From Phycisphaeraceae bacterium (lineage in GTDB: Bacteria; Planctomycetota; Phycisphaerae; Phycisphaerales; Phycisphaeraceae), in the NCBI GenBank assembly GCA_963674705.1, contig OY771506.1:320001-384000 (forward strand): a DNA stretch of 64,000 nt, given 5' to 3'. Every line of letters starts with the position of its first letter. Position 1 is the stretch's first letter. The notes beneath the pieces are model-generated. The model made no database searches, was not told where the DNA came from, and was given only the letters and a program-made list of their open reading frames with translations. The translations under genes were made by a program, and so were the position numbers. Positions 28,506 to 56,231 of the stretch are shown here, one piece after another.

Positions 28506-28688
28506 ACCGCGAAGGCGCGAAGAGCGCGAAGAAAATCATTATTTAGCCACCGATAAACACGGATGAACACAGAGACCGATCAATAGCTCGGATCCATCCA
28601 AGCCGACTTCTTTTTCTTATCTGTGTTTATCCGTGTTTATCTGTGGCTAACTTCTTCTCATCCTTCGCGATCTTCGCGCCTTCGCGGT
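28506..28688. repeat. Nested palindromic element, empty form (copy A)
   Basis: Outer arms ACCGCGAAGGCGCGAAGAGCGCGAAG / CTTCGCGATCTTCGCGCCTTCGCGGT; inner arms TTAGCCACCGATAAACACGGATGAACACAGA / TCTGTGTTTATCCGTGTTTATCTGTGGCTAA; ~45-nt spacer. Confidence 0.92.
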
Positions 28689-31161: not shown

Positions 31162-31462
31162 ACCGCGAAGGCGCGAAGAGACGCGAAGTAGTTTAGCCAC
31201 AGATGAACAAGGATACTGGAGTTTCACCCCCTCTCCCCCTGGGAGAGGGCCGGTTGCCTGTAAATGCACGAATGGCGAATATCGAATGTCGAAAGAATGC
31301 CCAATTACCAATGACAAATTTTTGAACGTATATGATTTTGGCATTTGTCATTTGAGCATTCATTCGACATTCGTGCATTCGACATTTTTCTTATCTGTGT
31401 TCATCCGTGTTCATCTGTGGCTAAATAATGCTTTTCTTAGCGCCCTTCGCGCCTTCGCGGTT
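31162..31462. repeat. Nested palindromic element (copy B) containing two other repeat elements
   Basis: Same outer and inner arms as 28506-28688; interior holds a CCCTCTCCC/GGGAGAGGG hairpin and a CGAATG/CATTCG palindromic module (~31259-31386). Confidence 0.9.
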
Positions 31463-31464
31463 CA

Positions 31465-32151
31465 TCACATAAATATCAACACATACCCGATCCCAAATAC
31501 CGCCAGGTCCGCAAACACGTGGCTGACATACCCCGCATAGATATTGCGGTACTTCAGGTAGATCCACGACCAGGTCGCCCCGCCGACAAACACACCGACC
31601 GCGCCGAGCGTCGTCACGCGCCAGTCAAAGTAAGCATTGAGCGCGATGATGTGATGCAACGTGAAGAACAAACCCGATGCAATCACCGCCGGCCAGCGCG
31701 GCATCACTGCTTCACAACGTGTAAAGACAAACCACCGCCAGACGTATTCTTCCAATAACGAATTGATCGTGCACCAGCTAACCGCCAGCAGGATGTACAA
31801 GAGCGGCGAGGTCAGCCCGGCGTCCTTCGCGTTACTGCTCACACGCTGCACATCGATCCAATGCCCGAACAGGAAGTACCCCGCCAGGATCAACGCAAAA
31901 ATAACAACGCCCGTGATCAGCGCGGCCCCCATCCCCTTACCCGTCGGCTTCGGGATCGCCATGCGCTGCTTATCCACGAATAGCAACCACACCACCGGCA
32001 GCAAAAACAGCCAGACCTTGAAGAAACCAAATAAGGCTTTGGCGATAAACGCCCCCTGCATCCCATACAGCGTCAACCACACCGCAATACTCGGCGCGGG
32101 CACCAGAAGCAGCAAGGCTAACAACGCGTTACGTTTGCGATTGTCCGGCAT
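31465..32151 (-). CDS. CPBP (Abi/CAAX) family intramembrane metalloprotease
   Basis: EEYVWRW, FTLHH and SHVFAD motifs; multi-TM. Confidence 0.9.
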   Translation of the reverse strand: MPDNRKRNALLALLLLVPAPSIAVWLTLYGMQGAFIAKALFGFFKVWLFLLPVVWLLFVDKQRMAIPKPTGKGMGAALITGVVIFALILAGYFLFGHWIDVQRVSSNAKDAGLTSPLLYILLAVSWCTINSLLEEYVWRWFVFTRCEAVMPRWPAVIASGLFFTLHHIIALNAYFDWRVTTLGAVGVFVGGATWSWIYLKYRNIYAGYVSHVFADLAVFGIGYVLIFM

Positions 32152-32203
32152 GCTGAATTTATACTTGAATTAACACTTCTTAACCACAAAGCCGCAGAAT
32201 TGA

Positions 32204-32376
32204 GGAACAGGGATGGACACGGATAGGGGAGAATGGCGAATGCACGAATGTCGGATGTCGAATGAATGCTCAAATGACAAATGCCAAAATCATATACGTT
32301 CAAAAATTCGTCATTGGTAATTGGGCATTCTTTCGACATTCGTGCATTTACAGATATCCGTGTCCATCCCTGTTCC
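32204..32376. repeat. Variant nested palindromic element (copy C)
   Basis: Perfect 22-bp IR GGAACAGGGATGGACACGGATA/TATCCGTGTCCATCCCTGTTCC enclosing an inverted copy of the 31259-31386 module. Confidence 0.88.
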
Positions 32377-42451: not shown

Positions 42452-42466
42452 AAACAAAGAAGAAGA

Positions 42467-42543
42467 TTCACCGCAGAGATCGCGGAGGACGCAGAGTAGG
42501 ATAAGAAGTGTGGAACAATGATAAACGCTGATGAACGCTGATA
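42467..42543. repeat. Left arm of a palindromic element (CACCGCAGAG type)
   Basis: TTCACCGCAGAGATCGCGGAGGACGCAGAG followed by GATAAACGCTGATGAACGCTGAT. Confidence 0.8.
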
Positions 42544-42594
42544 GTCACGATTTGATCCCGTAGGAGCGGGCCTATCCGGGCGCAAACACTGAAT

Positions 42595-43101
42595 ATGCCT
42601 TCAACACCTGTCCCCGAAGTCAGAGATCATGATCTTCCGGTTGTCGAATCGACATTCTGGAGAACCTCCTATTGGCTTGTGTTGATTCACTCAACATGCA
42701 TTTGGATTAGTTGTTTCGTATGCGTATTTCCGTTGCTAGGTGCGAAAACAGATCCTGATGACAGCACAACACTTCTTGTTCTTTTCGCGGTTATATTTTT
42801 TCTTTCCATCACAAGTATCCTGGCCAGCGTCGGGTTTTATAAATGTAGACGAAGCGATCGAAGCAAAGGGTACTTGATAGCCTACATTATCCTCCAGTCA
42901 CTTTATTTTGTCAGTAGCTTGACTTGCGTGTCATATGTTTTCTACGTGATCTTGGCTTTGGCTGCTGGTTATCAAAACCAATCAACAGTTGGGTTAGCAG
43001 TCGTGATTATCTTGGCTCTTGTCGGCTCCTGTCTGCCTTTGTGGCTCGTGATAGGCAGAGGCGTATGGATACTTTTTCATCGGCCCCAGGCAACTGGTTG
43101 A
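42595..43101 (+). CDS. Low-GC 4-TM hypothetical membrane protein (cargo)
   Basis: 168-aa ORF with four hydrophobic segments; visibly AT-richer than its neighbours. Confidence 0.75.
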   Translation: MPSTPVPEVRDHDLPVVESTFWRTSYWLVLIHSTCIWISCFVCVFPLLGAKTDPDDSTTLLVLFAVIFFLSITSILASVGFYKCRRSDRSKGYLIAYIILQSLYFVSSLTCVSYVFYVILALAAGYQNQSTVGLAVVIILALVGSCLPLWLVIGRGVWILFHRPQATG

Positions 43102-43221
43102 TGCCAATGGTAGATTCCTGAATTGCGTCACTTGAGGCTATGACTTGCGAGGCACATACGGCCCAACCTTCCAGGAATGCGGAGCCTCAGTACGTAGGCC
43201 CAGACCCACATCCGCAAAATC

Positions 43222-43310
43222 AAAATATGCGTAATCCCCGTAATCTGCGAATACTTCTATTTGCCTTTCTCAGCGCCCTCCGTGTCCTCTGCGGTGAACC
43301 CGCTTATCCC
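43222..43310. repeat. Right arm of palindromic element (first copy)
   Basis: TGCGTAATCCCCGTAATCTGCG...CTCAGCGCCCTCCGTGTCCTCTGCGGTGAA; inverted to 42467-42496 and direct repeat of 45288-45375. Confidence 0.85.
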
Positions 43311-43400
43311 CCTATCACCAACCAACATCTCATTTTGATTGTAAAATTACTGATATGTCGAGCATGAGACAGTTGCCATAGGTATGAATAGAGGGGGCAC

Positions 43401-44324
43401 ATGTTTTATCCCATCCGGTCGTTCTATCCTGAACTGAAGCCACTACCCTGGAAACTGAGGTGGGCGGTTATCAAGCGCGTCTGCGAAAACCCGATGTCGC
43501 GAAGCCGTGCGCCTAAATTGCTTGTGGGTATTGGCACGGTTGTGGGGCTGGTGAGTATGGTCACCGCCATCTATCTCACGTTGGGCACATTTTCAATGAA
43601 CAACGATGTTGTGGTTGTGATGGCCGCCGTGTTGGCATTGCTGCCGTTTTGTATAGCCGCTTATGTCGTGAAAGTCATCGACGACCGTAAGTCGTTTCTC
43701 ATCTGGCTGGAAAATCACACATACAACCAACGGTCACACTTCTGCCTGAACTGCTGGCAACCTTTGCATGATCTCGATCGCGAAGATTGCCCACACTGTT
43801 CACAGCAGCAATTCACGTTCAACACCGACCGCCAGGGCACCGCTTTACCCTTAGAGGAAGCAACAGAAGAAACACCCGAACTGCAACTACCCGCCATCGA
43901 GTTGCCGGACAAGACTGACCGAGAAGCCATCAGCTACTTCCTGCAAGGCAAAAAACCACCGGAAGCAGAATTCTGGTACGCCATGACCGAACCGTTGGCG
44001 TATGCCGTCATCTTCGGCCTGCCGATCTCCATCGGCGTCGTCATCTACAGCCCCACATACCGGTGGTATGCCATGGCTGCAGCGATAGCCATCATCTCTC
44101 TCGCAGGGATAGCGGGGTACCGTATTCAACGAACCACCCGAGCACATTCAAAACGGGCTATCAAAAAGTACTGCCCCGACGGCGTCGCCCCGTGGTGCAT
44201 CTACTGCGACTACGACCTGCGCGGCCGCATCGAATCTTCCTGCCCGGAATGCGGCAAACCCATCTTCGTCTACGACTTCAAATGGCGGCCGTGGAAGTTC
44301 AGACGATCCCGGCCTGAAAAATAA
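43401..44324 (+). CDS. Membrane protein with duplicated TM-hairpin + CxxC..CxxC zinc-ribbon modules
   Basis: CLNC..CPHC and CIYCDYDLRG..CPECG, each after two TMs; GAGGGGG RBS. Confidence 0.8.
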   Translation: MFYPIRSFYPELKPLPWKLRWAVIKRVCENPMSRSRAPKLLVGIGTVVGLVSMVTAIYLTLGTFSMNNDVVVVMAAVLALLPFCIAAYVVKVIDDRKSFLIWLENHTYNQRSHFCLNCWQPLHDLDREDCPHCSQQQFTFNTDRQGTALPLEEATEETPELQLPAIELPDKTDREAISYFLQGKKPPEAEFWYAMTEPLAYAVIFGLPISIGVVIYSPTYRWYAMAAAIAIISLAGIAGYRIQRTTRAHSKRAIKKYCPDGVAPWCIYCDYDLRGRIESSCPECGKPIFVYDFKWRPWKFRRSRPEK

Positions 44325-44335
44325 GGGGGAATGCC

Positions 44336-45250
44336 ATCTACATCATCCGCTCCCACTATCCCGAACTGCAGCATCTTCCGCATGAACTACGGCACGATCT
44401 ACTCAAGCACATCTGTGCCAATCCCGTGCATCAGCCCGTCCTACCGTTGGTCGTTTTTTCCGCCGGATTGATCCCGGTCTTCGTCACACCCTTCGCCGCA
44501 ATCTGGTACTACGGCATCTATCTGGTGTCCCTCACAAATATCCTGCTTATCACCGGCAGCGTCGCGCTATTCTGGGTTGCAGGCATCGTGATCCCCAAAC
44601 TTATCAGCGACCGTAAAAAGTTCTGTAGATGGTTAGACCGACGCACATACCGTGGGTATCCACATCATTGTTTAAGTTGCAGACACCTGTTGAAAGACCC
44701 GATCGCCACATGCTGTGAATCTTGCGGAGCGCAAACGCATCGACTGGACACGGAACGGCAAGGCGTCGCTCCGCCGGCCGAGGACATGGCTCTGCAATCA
44801 CTGATCGATCCGTCGATGACCACGTATCCGAAGGACCGACAACGTAAAGACCTCACCAAGAATCTCCACTTTGCTCAACGGCAACATCTGCTGCTGGAGG
44901 GCTTCGTAGTATCTCTCACGCTGGTCTTAGAGGGATGGTTGCTATGGGCTATCCTCGTATGTGTAATTGGGTACTGGATCTGGCAAAGTTGGGGCACATG
45001 GTGGCTGATGACACTGAAAATCGCAGCGATCGTGGCGTTATATATTCTGGTTGTAGCCTGGATCGCAATGCAACCGCGGCTATTGCTTAAGGCCGTTAAA
45101 AAGTATGGGCCATATGGAGCGTTACCCTGGTGTCTATCCTGTGATACTGATCTGCACGGCAATCTGACTCGCGACAGAGACGGGCGTCTCAAGAAACGAT
45201 GTGCCAAGTGTGGACGGCCAGTGTTTGAATATGAAGTGGATGACAAATAA
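44336..45250 (+). CDS. Tandem paralog of 43401-44324 (start anomalous)
   Basis: The frame extends upstream of the track's GTG as IYIIRSHYPELQHLPHELR, matching FYPIRSFYPELKPLPWKLR; CLSC..CESC and CLSCDTDL..CAKCG. Confidence 0.72.
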   Translation: MYIIRSHYPELQHLPHELRHDLLKHICANPVHQPVLPLVVFSAGLIPVFVTPFAAIWYYGIYLVSLTNILLITGSVALFWVAGIVIPKLISDRKKFCRWLDRRTYRGYPHHCLSCRHLLKDPIATCCESCGAQTHRLDTERQGVAPPAEDMALQSLIDPSMTTYPKDRQRKDLTKNLHFAQRQHLLLEGFVVSLTLVLEGWLLWAILVCVIGYWIWQSWGTWWLMTLKIAAIVALYILVVAWIAMQPRLLLKAVKKYGPYGALPWCLSCDTDLHGNLTRDRDGRLKKRCAKCGRPVFEYEVDDK

Positions 45251-45287
45251 TAAACAGCCCGTAGTCCCGGGCTCGCATTTACTCATC

Positions 45288-45375
45288 AAAATCTGCGTAA
45301 TCCCCGAAATCTGCGGATACTTCTTCTTGTCTTTCTCCGCGCCCTCTGCGTCCTCTGCGGTGAACCCTCTTATCC
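45288..45375. repeat. Right arm of palindromic element (second copy)
   Basis: TGCGTAATCCCCGAAATCTGCG...CTCCGCGCCCTCTGCGTCCTCTGCGGTGAACCCTCTTATCC. Confidence 0.85.
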
Positions 45376-53214: not shown

Positions 53215-53430
53215 ATGCTCGCACTCACACGCCGCGTCGGCGAAGAAGTCGTAATTGGCGACCCAGGCAACCCCCAAGGGGTCATCCGCATCGTCGAAAT
53301 CCAAGGCGACAAGGTACGCCTCGCCTTCGACTTCCCACGCGAAACCGCCATCAACCGCCGAGAACTCGCCGACCAGAAAGCCCGCGGCGAAAAACCAACA
53401 AAGAAAAACAACGGCAACGGCGGCAAGTAA
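53215..53430 (+). CDS. csrA: Carbon storage regulator CsrA-family protein
   Basis: MLALTRRVGEEVVIG...VRLAFDFPRETAINRRE. Confidence 0.88.
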   Translation: MLALTRRVGEEVVIGDPGNPQGVIRIVEIQGDKVRLAFDFPRETAINRRELADQKARGEKPTKKNNGNGGK

Positions 53431-53457
53431 ACCTCACCGTCCTGCCTTCGACCCATT

Positions 53458-53487
53458 TAGCCCCAGGCGGAAGCCTGGGGTTTTTTA
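53458..53487 (+). terminator. REP-like hairpin acting as terminator after csrA
   Basis: CCCCAGGC-ggaa-GCCTGGGG + T6; related hairpins at 26661-26683 and 54330-54351. Confidence 0.75.
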
Positions 53488-53535
53488 TTCGTCTACCACA
53501 TTGCCGCCTAACCACCGCCGACTAAGATCGGCCCC

Positions 53536-54321
53536 ATGACCCAAAACAATCACTCACAACCCGCCCCACAAAAACTCGGCGACTTCACCGAACAAGCCGA
53601 CGCGTATCAGGCTTCACGCCCGAACTACCCCGTCGCCCTGATCGAAGAGCTTATCCACCAACTCAACCTCCAACCCAGCGCCAACGTCGCTGACATCGGC
53701 GCGGGCACCGGCATCTTCACCGCTCAACTCGCAGCGCATGGCTTCAACATGACCGCCGTCGAACCCAACCCCGTCATGAGTAACAAAGCGGTAACCCATA
53801 CGAACGTCCGTTGGGTCAAAGGCACGTTTGAAGAAACTTACCTGCCTGATGCTTCGCAGGATTGGATCACCGCCGCACAGGCATTCCACTGGGCCAAACC
53901 CGACCAGGCCCTGCCCGAACTGCACCGCATCCTCAAACCCAACAGCGCTTTCACCGCGCTGTGGAACAACCGCCTTAACAATGAAGAACCGATACTCACG
54001 CGCACATGGGAACTGATACGTACCAACGTCCCCGAATTCGACGATACCTACCGCGACAACGGCAACTGGGAAAACGTACTCACCTCAAACGGCCTCTTTC
54101 ACGATGTAACCCGCAACGAACACCGCCACATCATCAACATGCCCCGCGAGCGCTACCTCGCACTCTGGCACAGCCACAACCACCTCAACGTCTCCGCAGG
54201 CCCACAGCGCTTCGCCAAACTGATCCAACTCATCGAACAGGACCTGGACAAACACAATGTCGATGTTGTGCCGATGCCCTATCTATGCCAAGCCTGGACC
54301 GCCAAACGCCGCGATACATAA
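53536..54321 (+). CDS. Class I SAM-dependent methyltransferase
   Basis: RPNYP, VADIGAGTGIFT, AVEPN, AAQAFHW. Confidence 0.92.
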   Translation: MTQNNHSQPAPQKLGDFTEQADAYQASRPNYPVALIEELIHQLNLQPSANVADIGAGTGIFTAQLAAHGFNMTAVEPNPVMSNKAVTHTNVRWVKGTFEETYLPDASQDWITAAQAFHWAKPDQALPELHRILKPNSAFTALWNNRLNNEEPILTRTWELIRTNVPEFDDTYRDNGNWENVLTSNGLFHDVTRNEHRHIINMPRERYLALWHSHNHLNVSAGPQRFAKLIQLIEQDLDKHNVDVVPMPYLCQAWTAKRRDT

Positions 54322-54368
54322 AACACACTTAGCCCCGGGCTTGCCCGGGGTAACTCAACAAATGCAGA

Positions 54369-55125
54369 TGAACCGCGAAGGCGCAAAGAGCGCGAAGAAG
54401 ATTAGCCACCGATAAACACGGATACGAGCCAAGCGAAGAGGTGCTATTCCAACAAACGCGACGACACGACATACAATGCCGCCAGGCAAACCGGTGTCAG
54501 GCTGTCGAAGAAAAATGCAACCAGTAGATTGATATTATCGTCCACTGGAATAACCCGAACGATCGCAGTTGAAACCAGACAAACCGGCACGATGGCGATG
54601 CACGCAAGCTTCACCCATTCGATGCCTTTTAGATTCGCTTCTCGCCAAAGCCCTATCAAGAGAAACAAGAGCGTCAGCAGGTAGAGGATGTAGAAAGGCC
54701 AATAGGTCCAGACATAAAGCCAATCGAGACGATCGGTCGTTTGGCCCCTGAATAAATCAGGAAACGTCAGAACTACTTGAATACCTGATGCAACAGCAGC
54801 AAATGAATACACCTTCTGACGATCACGTATCGCCCAGCAAGCCCCGGCAATGAGGCCATATCCAATACAGCTTGGCAGACAAATACCTAGCCCGTTGACT
54901 TCCAGGTTTAACGCAACACACAACAAGCCAATCGCAATCAACCAATAATGTGTCATCAGTAAATTCCCCCTTTAAAACATGGATCGAAAACGAACAATCC
55001 TCTACTACTAACTGAATCTAAGAACCAAACGCTGCTCATCAGCCTCAACTCTTTTTTCTTATCCGTGTTCATCCGTGTTCATCTGTGGCTAATCTTCTCC
55101 GCGCTCTTCGCCCCTTCGCGGTTCA
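54369..55125. mobile_element. Nested palindromic element (copy D) carrying a cargo gene; mobility inferred, not shown
   Basis: ~56-bp inverted arms TGAACCGCGAAGGCGCAAAGAGCGCGAAGAAGATTAGCCACCGATAAACACGGAT and its near-complement at ~55060-55125, same family as 28506-28688. Confidence 0.7.
54444..54956 (-). CDS. Low-GC multi-TM hypothetical membrane protein (cargo)
   Basis: 170 aa, ~6 hydrophobic segments, AGGGGG RBS, AT-richer than flanks. Confidence 0.78.
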   Translation of the reverse strand: MTHYWLIAIGLLCVALNLEVNGLGICLPSCIGYGLIAGACWAIRDRQKVYSFAAVASGIQVVLTFPDLFRGQTTDRLDWLYVWTYWPFYILYLLTLLFLLIGLWREANLKGIEWVKLACIAIVPVCLVSTAIVRVIPVDDNINLLVAFFFDSLTPVCLAALYVVSSRLLE

Positions 55126-55129
55126 CCCC

Positions 55130-56038
55130 CTATCCAAAATACTTCCCCCACAACAAATCCAACCGCTCAACCGCCACCCGATCGATCTTCGAGTTATCCG
55201 ACCAGATTCCCAGCGCCAGCGCGCTGTGCGCCGGACTCGGTTCAGCCTGCAACGCGCTCGTATCGCGCAGCGCCTGCTTCATCAGCGCGATGTTCGCCTT
55301 CGTCGCTTTTTGCAGGTTCCCGATGATCTCTTCCAGCAGATTCTGCGCAGGTACATTCGGATCGTGTGGCCGCCAACAGTCGTAATCCGTCGGCATGGCG
55401 ATCATCGCATACGCGATCTCCGCTTCACGCGCGAGCTTCGCCTCGGGCATCGCCGTCATGCCGATCAGGTCGCCGCCCCACTGCCGGTGCATGTTGGATT
55501 CAGCCTTGGTCGAAAAGGCAGGCCCTTCCATCACCACATACGTCCCCGTTTCGTGCACCTTGATCCCGTCGAGCCCCTTGGCCGCATCCAAGAGCCACTT
55601 GCGCATCACCGGGCAGAACGGCTCGGAAAATTCCACGTGTACCGCGGCACATTCGTAAAAGGTGTTTGCCCGCTTGTGCGTCTTATCTATCAGTTGATCG
55701 ACGATGACAAGATCACCCGGTGCGACCTCTTCGCGCAATGAGCCGGTTGCGCCGCTTGCGAGAATATGTGTAACACCCAGGCTCTTGAGTGCGTAGATAT
55801 TAGCGCGGTACGGCACAGCCGAAGGGTTGAGCGTGTGCCCCGGGCCGTGACGTTGAAGGATCGCGACCTGTGTGCCACCCCCGGAAGTTCCCCAATCCGC
55901 GAGCGTGATCGGTGAACTGGGTTTACCGAAAGGGGTATCGACTTCGATCGTCTCGCCCTTTTCCGCCCCGAGCGCGTCGCCCAGGCCGCTGCCGCCGATG
56001 ATGCCGATTTTTACTTGTTCATGGGTTGTCTGATTCAT
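55130..56038 (-). CDS. mtnP: S-methyl-5'-thioadenosine phosphorylase
   Basis: IGIIGGSG, RHGPGH, PYRANIYALK, MEGPAFSTKAES, GMTAMPEAKLAREAE, TDYDCW. Confidence 0.95.
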   Translation of the reverse strand: MNQTTHEQVKIGIIGGSGLGDALGAEKGETIEVDTPFGKPSSPITLADWGTSGGGTQVAILQRHGPGHTLNPSAVPYRANIYALKSLGVTHILASGATGSLREEVAPGDLVIVDQLIDKTHKRANTFYECAAVHVEFSEPFCPVMRKWLLDAAKGLDGIKVHETGTYVVMEGPAFSTKAESNMHRQWGGDLIGMTAMPEAKLAREAEIAYAMIAMPTDYDCWRPHDPNVPAQNLLEEIIGNLQKATKANIALMKQALRDTSALQAEPSPAHSALALGIWSDNSKIDRVAVERLDLLWGKYFG

Positions 56039-56231
56039 CACAGGATCATAACCCATTTACAAAAGTGCAGACCCGATGCACAAAACCACCCGCGAGCACG
56101 GTGTGATCAATGAATACACACCCGAATCAAAATTTCCTATTGGGGGCATGACATAAATCTGTCCGTCATGCGACTACACCCATGCATCAGCCTGAAAGTG
56201 CCTCTGGCACGACACGCTAGGGAGGTGTCAC

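Follow-up and report, generated by a model that had tools for sequence, protein, structure and literature searches.

The palindrome at positions 54369-55125 of the window (the whole 64,000-nt stretch of DNA that was analysed, from genome G000) is a genuine member of a little-described, REPIN-like family of elements, and it holds an orphan gene at a variable junction. What is new is that the same-site arms of the closest relative surround a non-coding palindrome, and that the outer arms of other relatives surround two further unrelated genes. The explanation that we favour, and hold to be probable, is that non-autonomous REPIN-like palindromes occupy a variable junction and that a gene is occasionally inserted into their loop. 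The focal site resembles a place where foreign genes land more than it does a dedicated machine for gene capture. A dedicated capture system, as proposed in an earlier note on this DNA, is not supported, and arm-guided exchange keeps a minor chance of being right.

The focal palindrome and its gene

The arms have two tiers. On the left, on the plus strand, an outer arm of family A (54369-54397, three CGCGAAG units of 8-9 nt) is followed by an inner arm of family B (54401-54423, two 10-nt CACRGATRAA units). On the right, on the minus strand, stand an inner B arm of three units (55061-55093) and an outer A arm (55100-55125), which lies 4 nt past the mtnP stop codon. The two 55-nt arms (54369-54423 and 55071-55125) are 91% complementary, and the inner-arm interior is 637 nt long. 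It should be pointed out that the left inner arm has two units against three in other copies; its orthologue in the relative G004 also has three, and the match with G004 runs up to the edge at 54423. As the earlier note stated, the element lies between convergent genes, namely a SAM methyltransferase gene (Methyltransf_11; 53536-54321, plus strand) and an mtnP-like phosphorylase gene (PNP_UDP_1; 55130-56056, minus strand), the latter being the constant flank of the slot. Because a public contig spanning 53200-55090 is identical letter for letter, with zero differences, the insert is not an assembly artefact.

The enclosed gene (54444-54956, minus strand) encodes an orphan membrane protein of 170 aa and is co-oriented behind mtnP. 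Its GC content is 0.48 and its GC3 is 0.53, compared with a genome GC3 median of 0.71 and a 5th percentile of 0.56. With the 55-nt arms, the 170-aa ORF and a G-rich stretch immediately upstream of it, the earlier description of two-tier inverted arms around a complete low-GC membrane-protein gene with a ribosome-binding site was borne out. A full HMMER search gave a family of 29 proteins at E 0.001 or better including the query (28 others), most of them about 170 aa long and sharing a conserved N-terminal motif. The ORF is a real gene, supported by its protein relatives. A word-seeded protein search matched the query alone, Pfam named no family for it, and weak single Pfam matches in 6 of 19 family members were discarded. 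The Atlas search returned hypothetical clusters only, none of the 8 checked having an informative name, and a metagenome scan with the cargo protein as single query gave no match. No sigma-70-like promoter was seen in 54300-55200. The cargo is probably kept because it would be read through from mtnP. A putative 38-codon open frame (54956-55072, minus strand) begins at an ATG of the right inner arm (MNTD...), and its stop overlaps the cargo start. This beginning resembles that of arm-started GxxExxY genes, and the frame may be there by chance.

The earlier note counted three copies of the arms. The two others are as it described, the first (28506-28688) being a gene-less A+B palindrome with a loop of 44-46 nt and the second (31162-31462) an A+B palindrome with other repeat modules in its loop, an interior shared with G004 (93%); the count itself gave way to a genome-wide family with 200 inner arms. 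The fold z values obtained for palindromes were -10.9 and -13.4, the latter for 28506-28688. Nearby, at 31283-32342, one membrane gene is flanked by two inverted, near-identical 88-nt modules of 7-mers.

At a sister site (42466-43300, plus strand), a low-GC membrane ORF (42595-43101) is enclosed by different arms of the GxxExxY type. This ORF was rejected as a second captured cargo, as it belongs to a resident gene family: four congeners (G002, G003, G008 and G009) hold a homologous gene here without arms, and G004 holds one with the right arms only. Arms can therefore come to bracket a resident gene. The longer array at 42466-45365 runs from nested arms through the low-GC membrane ORF, closing arms and two paralogous membrane ORFs to a second set of closing arms, downstream of a gene that we take to be creatininase-like. 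Five congeners have one fast-evolving membrane gene at this place (24-70% alike), with a C-terminal cysteine motif in frame in four of them.

Arm families and GxxExxY nuclease genes

Genome-wide arm pairing and tabulation of the interiors, which the earlier note had suggested, showed that the inner arms of G000 form 75 facing pairs. In 65 of these the loop is at most 200 nt long and gene-less. Among neighbouring inner-arm pairs within 1300 nt, 74 of 85 face each other, and a reversed control pattern gave 39 matches in G004 against 359 with the true pattern; facing inner-arm pairs are not chance. The 10 longer B loops hold two GxxExxY genes, both intact (one at C1:2217408-2217809), three orphan ORFs (the focal cargo, C1:1782082 and C1:1252423), a transposase-like ORF, a gene of 444-475 aa that seemingly lies between two half elements, and three nests without a convincing gene. 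Insertion sequences and transposase genes also occupy B loops; about 30 B arms are genuine and unpaired. The 241-aa gene at C1:1252423 was dismissed as evidence of movement, its sole match among 144 family genomes being G004 at the same site.

The earlier note had suggested that arms of this type commonly flank GxxExxY genes, and this proved correct for both tiers. In 11 genomes of the genus PF13366 matched 37 times; 30 of these matches were fetched and 29 were scorable. All 29 had inverted tandem-unit arms, which were A arms in 2 cases, B arms in 5 and arms of other families in 22; several of these other families also nest in loops of this genome. GxxExxY genes stand between A arms in G004 (L127:9428-9826; TIGR04256, E 1.7e-43) and in G009. 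Since both arm types belong to GxxExxY cassettes, the A and B tiers are therefore one element within another. The focal arms are two nested gene-less members of a palindromic family, the full forms of which hold a GxxExxY gene between inverted arrays of short units. An excerpt of PMC3424549 lists PF13366 as of unknown function. No description of the arm family was found in the openly accessible literature searched.

Eight arm families in G000 form 169 facing pairs, 159 of them without a called gene, a number reached with a gene caller that overlooks some low-GC genes. Gene-less pairs favour convergent gaps (41/155, against 375/2719 of all gaps) and avoid divergent ones (7/155, against 584/2719), and the palindromes favour the 3' ends of genes. 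They are also nested, one being placed in the A+T-rich loop of another. G000 has 14 Y1 matches; those with inverted repeats bear other repeats, and no Y1 gene lies within an A or B pair in this genome.

Further arrangements were noted in passing. At C1:2957918-2958265, G000 has a third GxxExxY gene with CACAGAG-type arms and an internal TAG, where the B element of G004 contains no gene. A recurrent unit, about 290 nt long, combines B arms with outer inverted ends of its own; it is found in G000 (C1:630386, 1333294, 2250660 and 2407021) and in G004 (L031, L051 and L067). It twice substitutes the interior of a CCCTCTCCC-type element, and one G004 copy carries a transposase gene. A 100-aa ORF with a GC content of 0.39 lies in 70-nt nested inverted arms at C1:5347571-5348171, and low-GC orphan genes lie in perfect inverted repeats of other families, of 27 nt at C1:3053900-3054496 and of 19 nt at C1:3296973-3297627.

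The mtnP junction and the cargo homologues in relatives

At the methyltransferase-mtnP site the loop content varies among relatives while the arms persist, as the earlier note had supposed. In G004, which has about 93% nucleotide identity to G000, the same A+B arms surround a 109-nt non-coding palindrome. The match between the two genomes stops where each B arm ends on its inner side, and each G000 arm matches the same-side arm of this single G004 element in both tiers, with diagnostic bases in common. In G002 the A arms enclose a gene of roughly 185 aa, whose start codon comes directly after the head of the inner arm. The A arms of G008 enclose a GIY-YIG-like gene that is interrupted by one stop codon; metagenome contig L151 has it intact (an Atlas lead). 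Gene-less palindromes stand here in G009 and G003 and degenerate arms in G005, G006 and G007. In G001 a homologue (51%) of the G002 cargo stands beside a single degenerate arm, and G010 lacks arms and cargo alike. Besides G000, 4 of 10 congeners possess the methyltransferase at this site; in the public runs X4 and X6 the flanks are present and the cargo absent. Across these genomes the interval from csrA to mtnP contains three different, unrelated genes, gene-less states of several kinds and a methyltransferase that some genomes lack. Judging from these contents, unrelated genes have refilled the focal loop on at least three occasions.

Such a record is a point against the explanation that we favour. 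Assuming that about 3-5% of loops hold a foreign gene, two further foreign genes in nine lineages have a p of 0.03-0.07, so that three unrelated genes in A arms at one site (G000, G002 and G008/L151) come to about this value after allowing for the first. Among 150 of the 305 A-arm matches, from six genomes, there were 36 short pairs and 2 long ones (counted by eye), and both long pairs lie at mtnP. Long A interiors are therefore a property of the locus more than of the arm. An A element is a long-standing resident behind mtnP in this genus, at a junction that is a variable slot. Two A+B arm starts in direct orientation flank the G004 methyltransferase (L031:10140-11700); recombination between them could explain its loss in congeners. 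In two other genera (L015 and L016, from G012 and G019) an arm begins inside the mtnP stop codon.

The bracketing could also be only apparent, if the gene came first and complete elements were inserted on both sides, each losing its inner half. The sister site, where arms surround a gene that is arm-less in four congeners, would agree with this, as would G001 with its homologue beside one degenerate arm, the unpaired B arms, and a pair of half elements at G004 5234275 where G000 has one whole element. The focal gene, however, was not found in the 10 congeners searched; a cargo gene present at the same locus in arm-less relatives, which the earlier note had named as evidence against its own proposal, was seen at the sister site and not at the focal one. 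Because both focal arms match a single G004 element, such an origin is very unlikely at the focal site.

The earlier note had further proposed a non-integron cassette system mobilised in trans. A system in which arms and cargo move together is not supported by the cargo homologues. In 144 family genomes the focal cargo has five homologues at five different loci, none of them bracketed; those of the G002 cargo elsewhere (0/3) and of the G008 cargo (0/6) are likewise without arms. In total, arms surrounded 0 of 14 relatives at a second locus, all of them distant (24-65% identity), so that a close donor could be missed. Arm absence says little in three of the five genomes with focal-cargo homologues, because B arms are almost lacking there. 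G017 has 8 B-arm matches and is weakly informative; G525 has 82 together with a GxxExxY gene, yet its cargo homologue has no arms. Many of the homologues start just past a host stop codon, a place also favoured by the palindromes.

Some of these homologues point to integrons. The G008-cargo homologue in G449 (58% identical) is flanked by attC-like sites as an ordinary integron cassette, and the focal-cargo homologue in G017 is one of several small genes in a row, with spacers between them that look attC-like by eye. At L238 (G449:C26), attC-like sites form an array together with a GIY-YIG-like cassette. The cargo could be a cassette that was integrated at a genomic attG-type site in the loop and later lost its attC by decay. 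At its head the B arm looks like the 5' end of a cassette, two cargos begin immediately behind TTAGC(C), and cassette insertion at GWT sites has been published (bioRxiv 10.1101/2022.09.11.507474, in part). However, no integron integrase over the cut-off was detected in G000, and the cargo stop codon is only 20 nt from the arm. A loose hand-made pattern found no attC at the three cargo sites and a single match in G000, which is another repeat; the pattern is insensitive, because it also missed the G017 spacers. On balance we consider the integron route decidedly unlikely.

Exchange of loop interiors and likeness to known systems

G004 was compared with G000 over 1.2 Mb; the comparisons are of only two close genomes, with about a third of G004 covered. 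Of the simple indels, 7/52 had an inverted repeat score of at least 14, namely two GxxExxY genes, three repeat nests and two genes that, from their motifs, we presume to be four-helix-like. Gains made up 36 of 708 ortholog slots. Repeats were present at 19/36 gain slots and 109/595 conserved slots (p 8e-6), a count that includes repeats together with their cognate genes. A score of at least 14 was reached by 5 of the 36 gains, all of them repeat nests or repeat-associated genes, and no ordinary gained gene among the 36 was bracketed by arms. The claim that arms preferentially bracket low-GC variable genes was thus upheld for base composition, as 3 of 4 non-cognate, non-IS called genes inside arms are low-GC (p 2e-4). 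It failed for variability, with ordinary gains unbracketed and orphans in loops near chance: since loops make up 1.5% of intergenic DNA and there are 135 low-GC gene clusters, 2.1 orphans in loops are expected, and 4-5 were seen (p 0.06-0.15).

Loop interiors do differ between the two genomes. Among 65 B pairs of G004, the interior was kept in 30, intermediate in 6 and replaced in 12 (one of them mis-paired and dropped), while 10 had no partner in G000 and 7 were unplaceable; unrelated interiors were thus found in 11/47 orthologous pairs. Faster turnover in loops than in other intergenic DNA was rejected (4/28 with arms versus 46/372 without, p 0.77, the arm-less control class including other repeat families). 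The sites of replaced loops have more diverged flanks (91.7% versus 94.6%, p 0.003). As for a target-site duplication, the one clean empty site, at G004 1033488, has only an imperfect short repeat, and other arm-less sites hold different elements. Several candidates were set aside. L052, considered as reciprocal cargo in G004, is a transposase-bearing insertion, as is L051; G004 5234275 was dropped as cargo because it consists of two half elements where G000 has one whole; and joints across the insert in run X1 had sides shorter than 30 nt and were taken as other repeat copies. Separately, at C1:3382621-3383256 G000 has a small membrane gene between two self-palindromic repeat copies, while in G004 (L051) a single copy is present without the gene, which is what recombination between two such copies would leave.

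GxxExxY genes themselves differ in their presence between the two genomes. At an orthologous B palindrome G004 has such a gene between the same arms (4603421), which G000 lacks (C1:1758774), having a different nested palindrome instead; the break is at the inner arm edge. At an operon stop/start junction, 7-mer arms frame a four-helix-bundle gene in G000 (C1:2218910-2219398), and A arms frame a GxxExxY gene in G004 (L127:9400-9840). In addition, some elements are chimeras joined within an arm. The swaps and chimeras fit arm-to-arm copying, and they also fit independent insertions at shared hotspots.

Arm-guided exchange would proceed as follows. A GxxExxY protein acting in trans would cut an empty palindrome, and repair would copy the interior found between matching arms at another chromosomal site or on incoming DNA. 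In this way the nuclease gene would spread much as a homing element does, and now and then so would a foreign gene that had once entered a loop. Both swaps, the unrelated interiors in 11/47 pairs, the chimeras, the three cargos at one site and the two intact B-armed GxxExxY genes of G000 speak for such a process. That the genes fit the arms tightly, that repeat-bearing slots are enriched for gains and that full and empty GxxExxY forms alternate also counts against the explanation that we favour. However, an arm-bound donor was found for no cargo (0/14), loop turnover is no higher than that of other intergenic DNA, and the replaced loops lie in diverged flanks. In addition, PF13366 is without known activity in the excerpt of PMC3424549, and no locus-specific empty joint was found in the assembled contigs of the best holder. 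Arm-guided exchange is improbable, though less so than the integron route. The same doubtful standing applies to its wider form, an integrase-free cassette exchange driven by a PD-(D/E)XK nuclease, in which every empty palindrome is refillable and loop genes hitch-hike.

The identity around the slot suggests how the full and empty alleles may have been exchanged. A tract at 53400-55800 (limits approximate), including the 3' 600 nt of mtnP, is 82-93% identical to G004, while the flanks, from tuf to csrA and onward from the 5' part of mtnP, are mostly 96-100% identical. The methyltransferase, at 88%, is in the lowest tenth of 248 orthologue pairs. In this one genome pair the dip points to homologous recombination in the flanking genes; thus the full and empty alleles would be old and would have been exchanged as a block through flanking-gene crossovers. 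The earlier note had placed an exchangeable slot at the centre of the palindrome; the two alleles differ as a 2.4-kb, probably recombined block and not by a clean swap at arm edges in chromosomes that are identical elsewhere.

Under the explanation that we favour, some 600 nt of DNA bearing an orphan gene from a mobile gene pool would have entered a resident A+B loop in one lineage, probably at the cost of the former loop and of an arm unit. Read on the minus strand, the bases that adjoin the inner side of each arm are similar to the head of the G004 loop palindrome, although weakly. Homologous recombination in the flanking genes may then have carried the cargo allele, as the 2.4-kb block, from one related lineage to another. 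The arms would serve as a landing place and a frequent recombination boundary, and not as a vehicle between loci.

Among known systems, REPIN/RAYT (PMC3116915) and TIRtrons (PMC3733652), both consulted as excerpts, share with this family inverted doublets, a less conserved spacer, hairpins and many gene-less extragenic copies, with few copies around one small cognate gene. Unlike REPIN/RAYT, the cognate gene here is a PD-(D/E)XK GxxExxY gene (TIGR04256) and not a Y1 HUH transposase, and the arms are tandem arrays of 8-10-nt units, with families nested in each other. Minimal mobile elements (definition quoted in PMC3787668; PMC1797815; excerpts of both) likewise have variable genes between conserved flanking genes, and the identity dip would fit their exchange by homologous recombination in the flanks; the variable part here lies within a palindrome whose arms persist. 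Neisserial dRS3/NIME arrays, proposed in the excerpt of PMC1797815 as promoters of exchange with incoming DNA and as targets of mobile elements, are similar in having inverted repeats around variable low-GC spacers that are dynamic at syntenic sites; here, however, the sequence is unrelated, no phage recombinase is known, and there are single nested palindromes instead of long arrays. Integron cassettes outside integrons (SALIN/attG; bioRxiv 10.1101/2022.09.11.507474, in part) are also promoterless single orphan genes behind host genes, and one cargo family has a cassette member, but attC and integrase were not found here. A MITE or composite element with passengers differs in that arms and cargo were not seen as a unit at more than one locus.

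The matched arm/protein pairs, A and B, offer candidate DNA targets for the uncharacterised GxxExxY family. Together with the full and empty alleles that two genomes, about 93% alike, have at the same site, they would make a biochemical test easy to design. Arm-guided exchange, if true, would add a new way of capturing genes. As the evidence stands, the captured gene counts as an occasional passenger; the site also illustrates how orphan genes accumulate in repeat loops and at gene 3' junctions of these bacteria.
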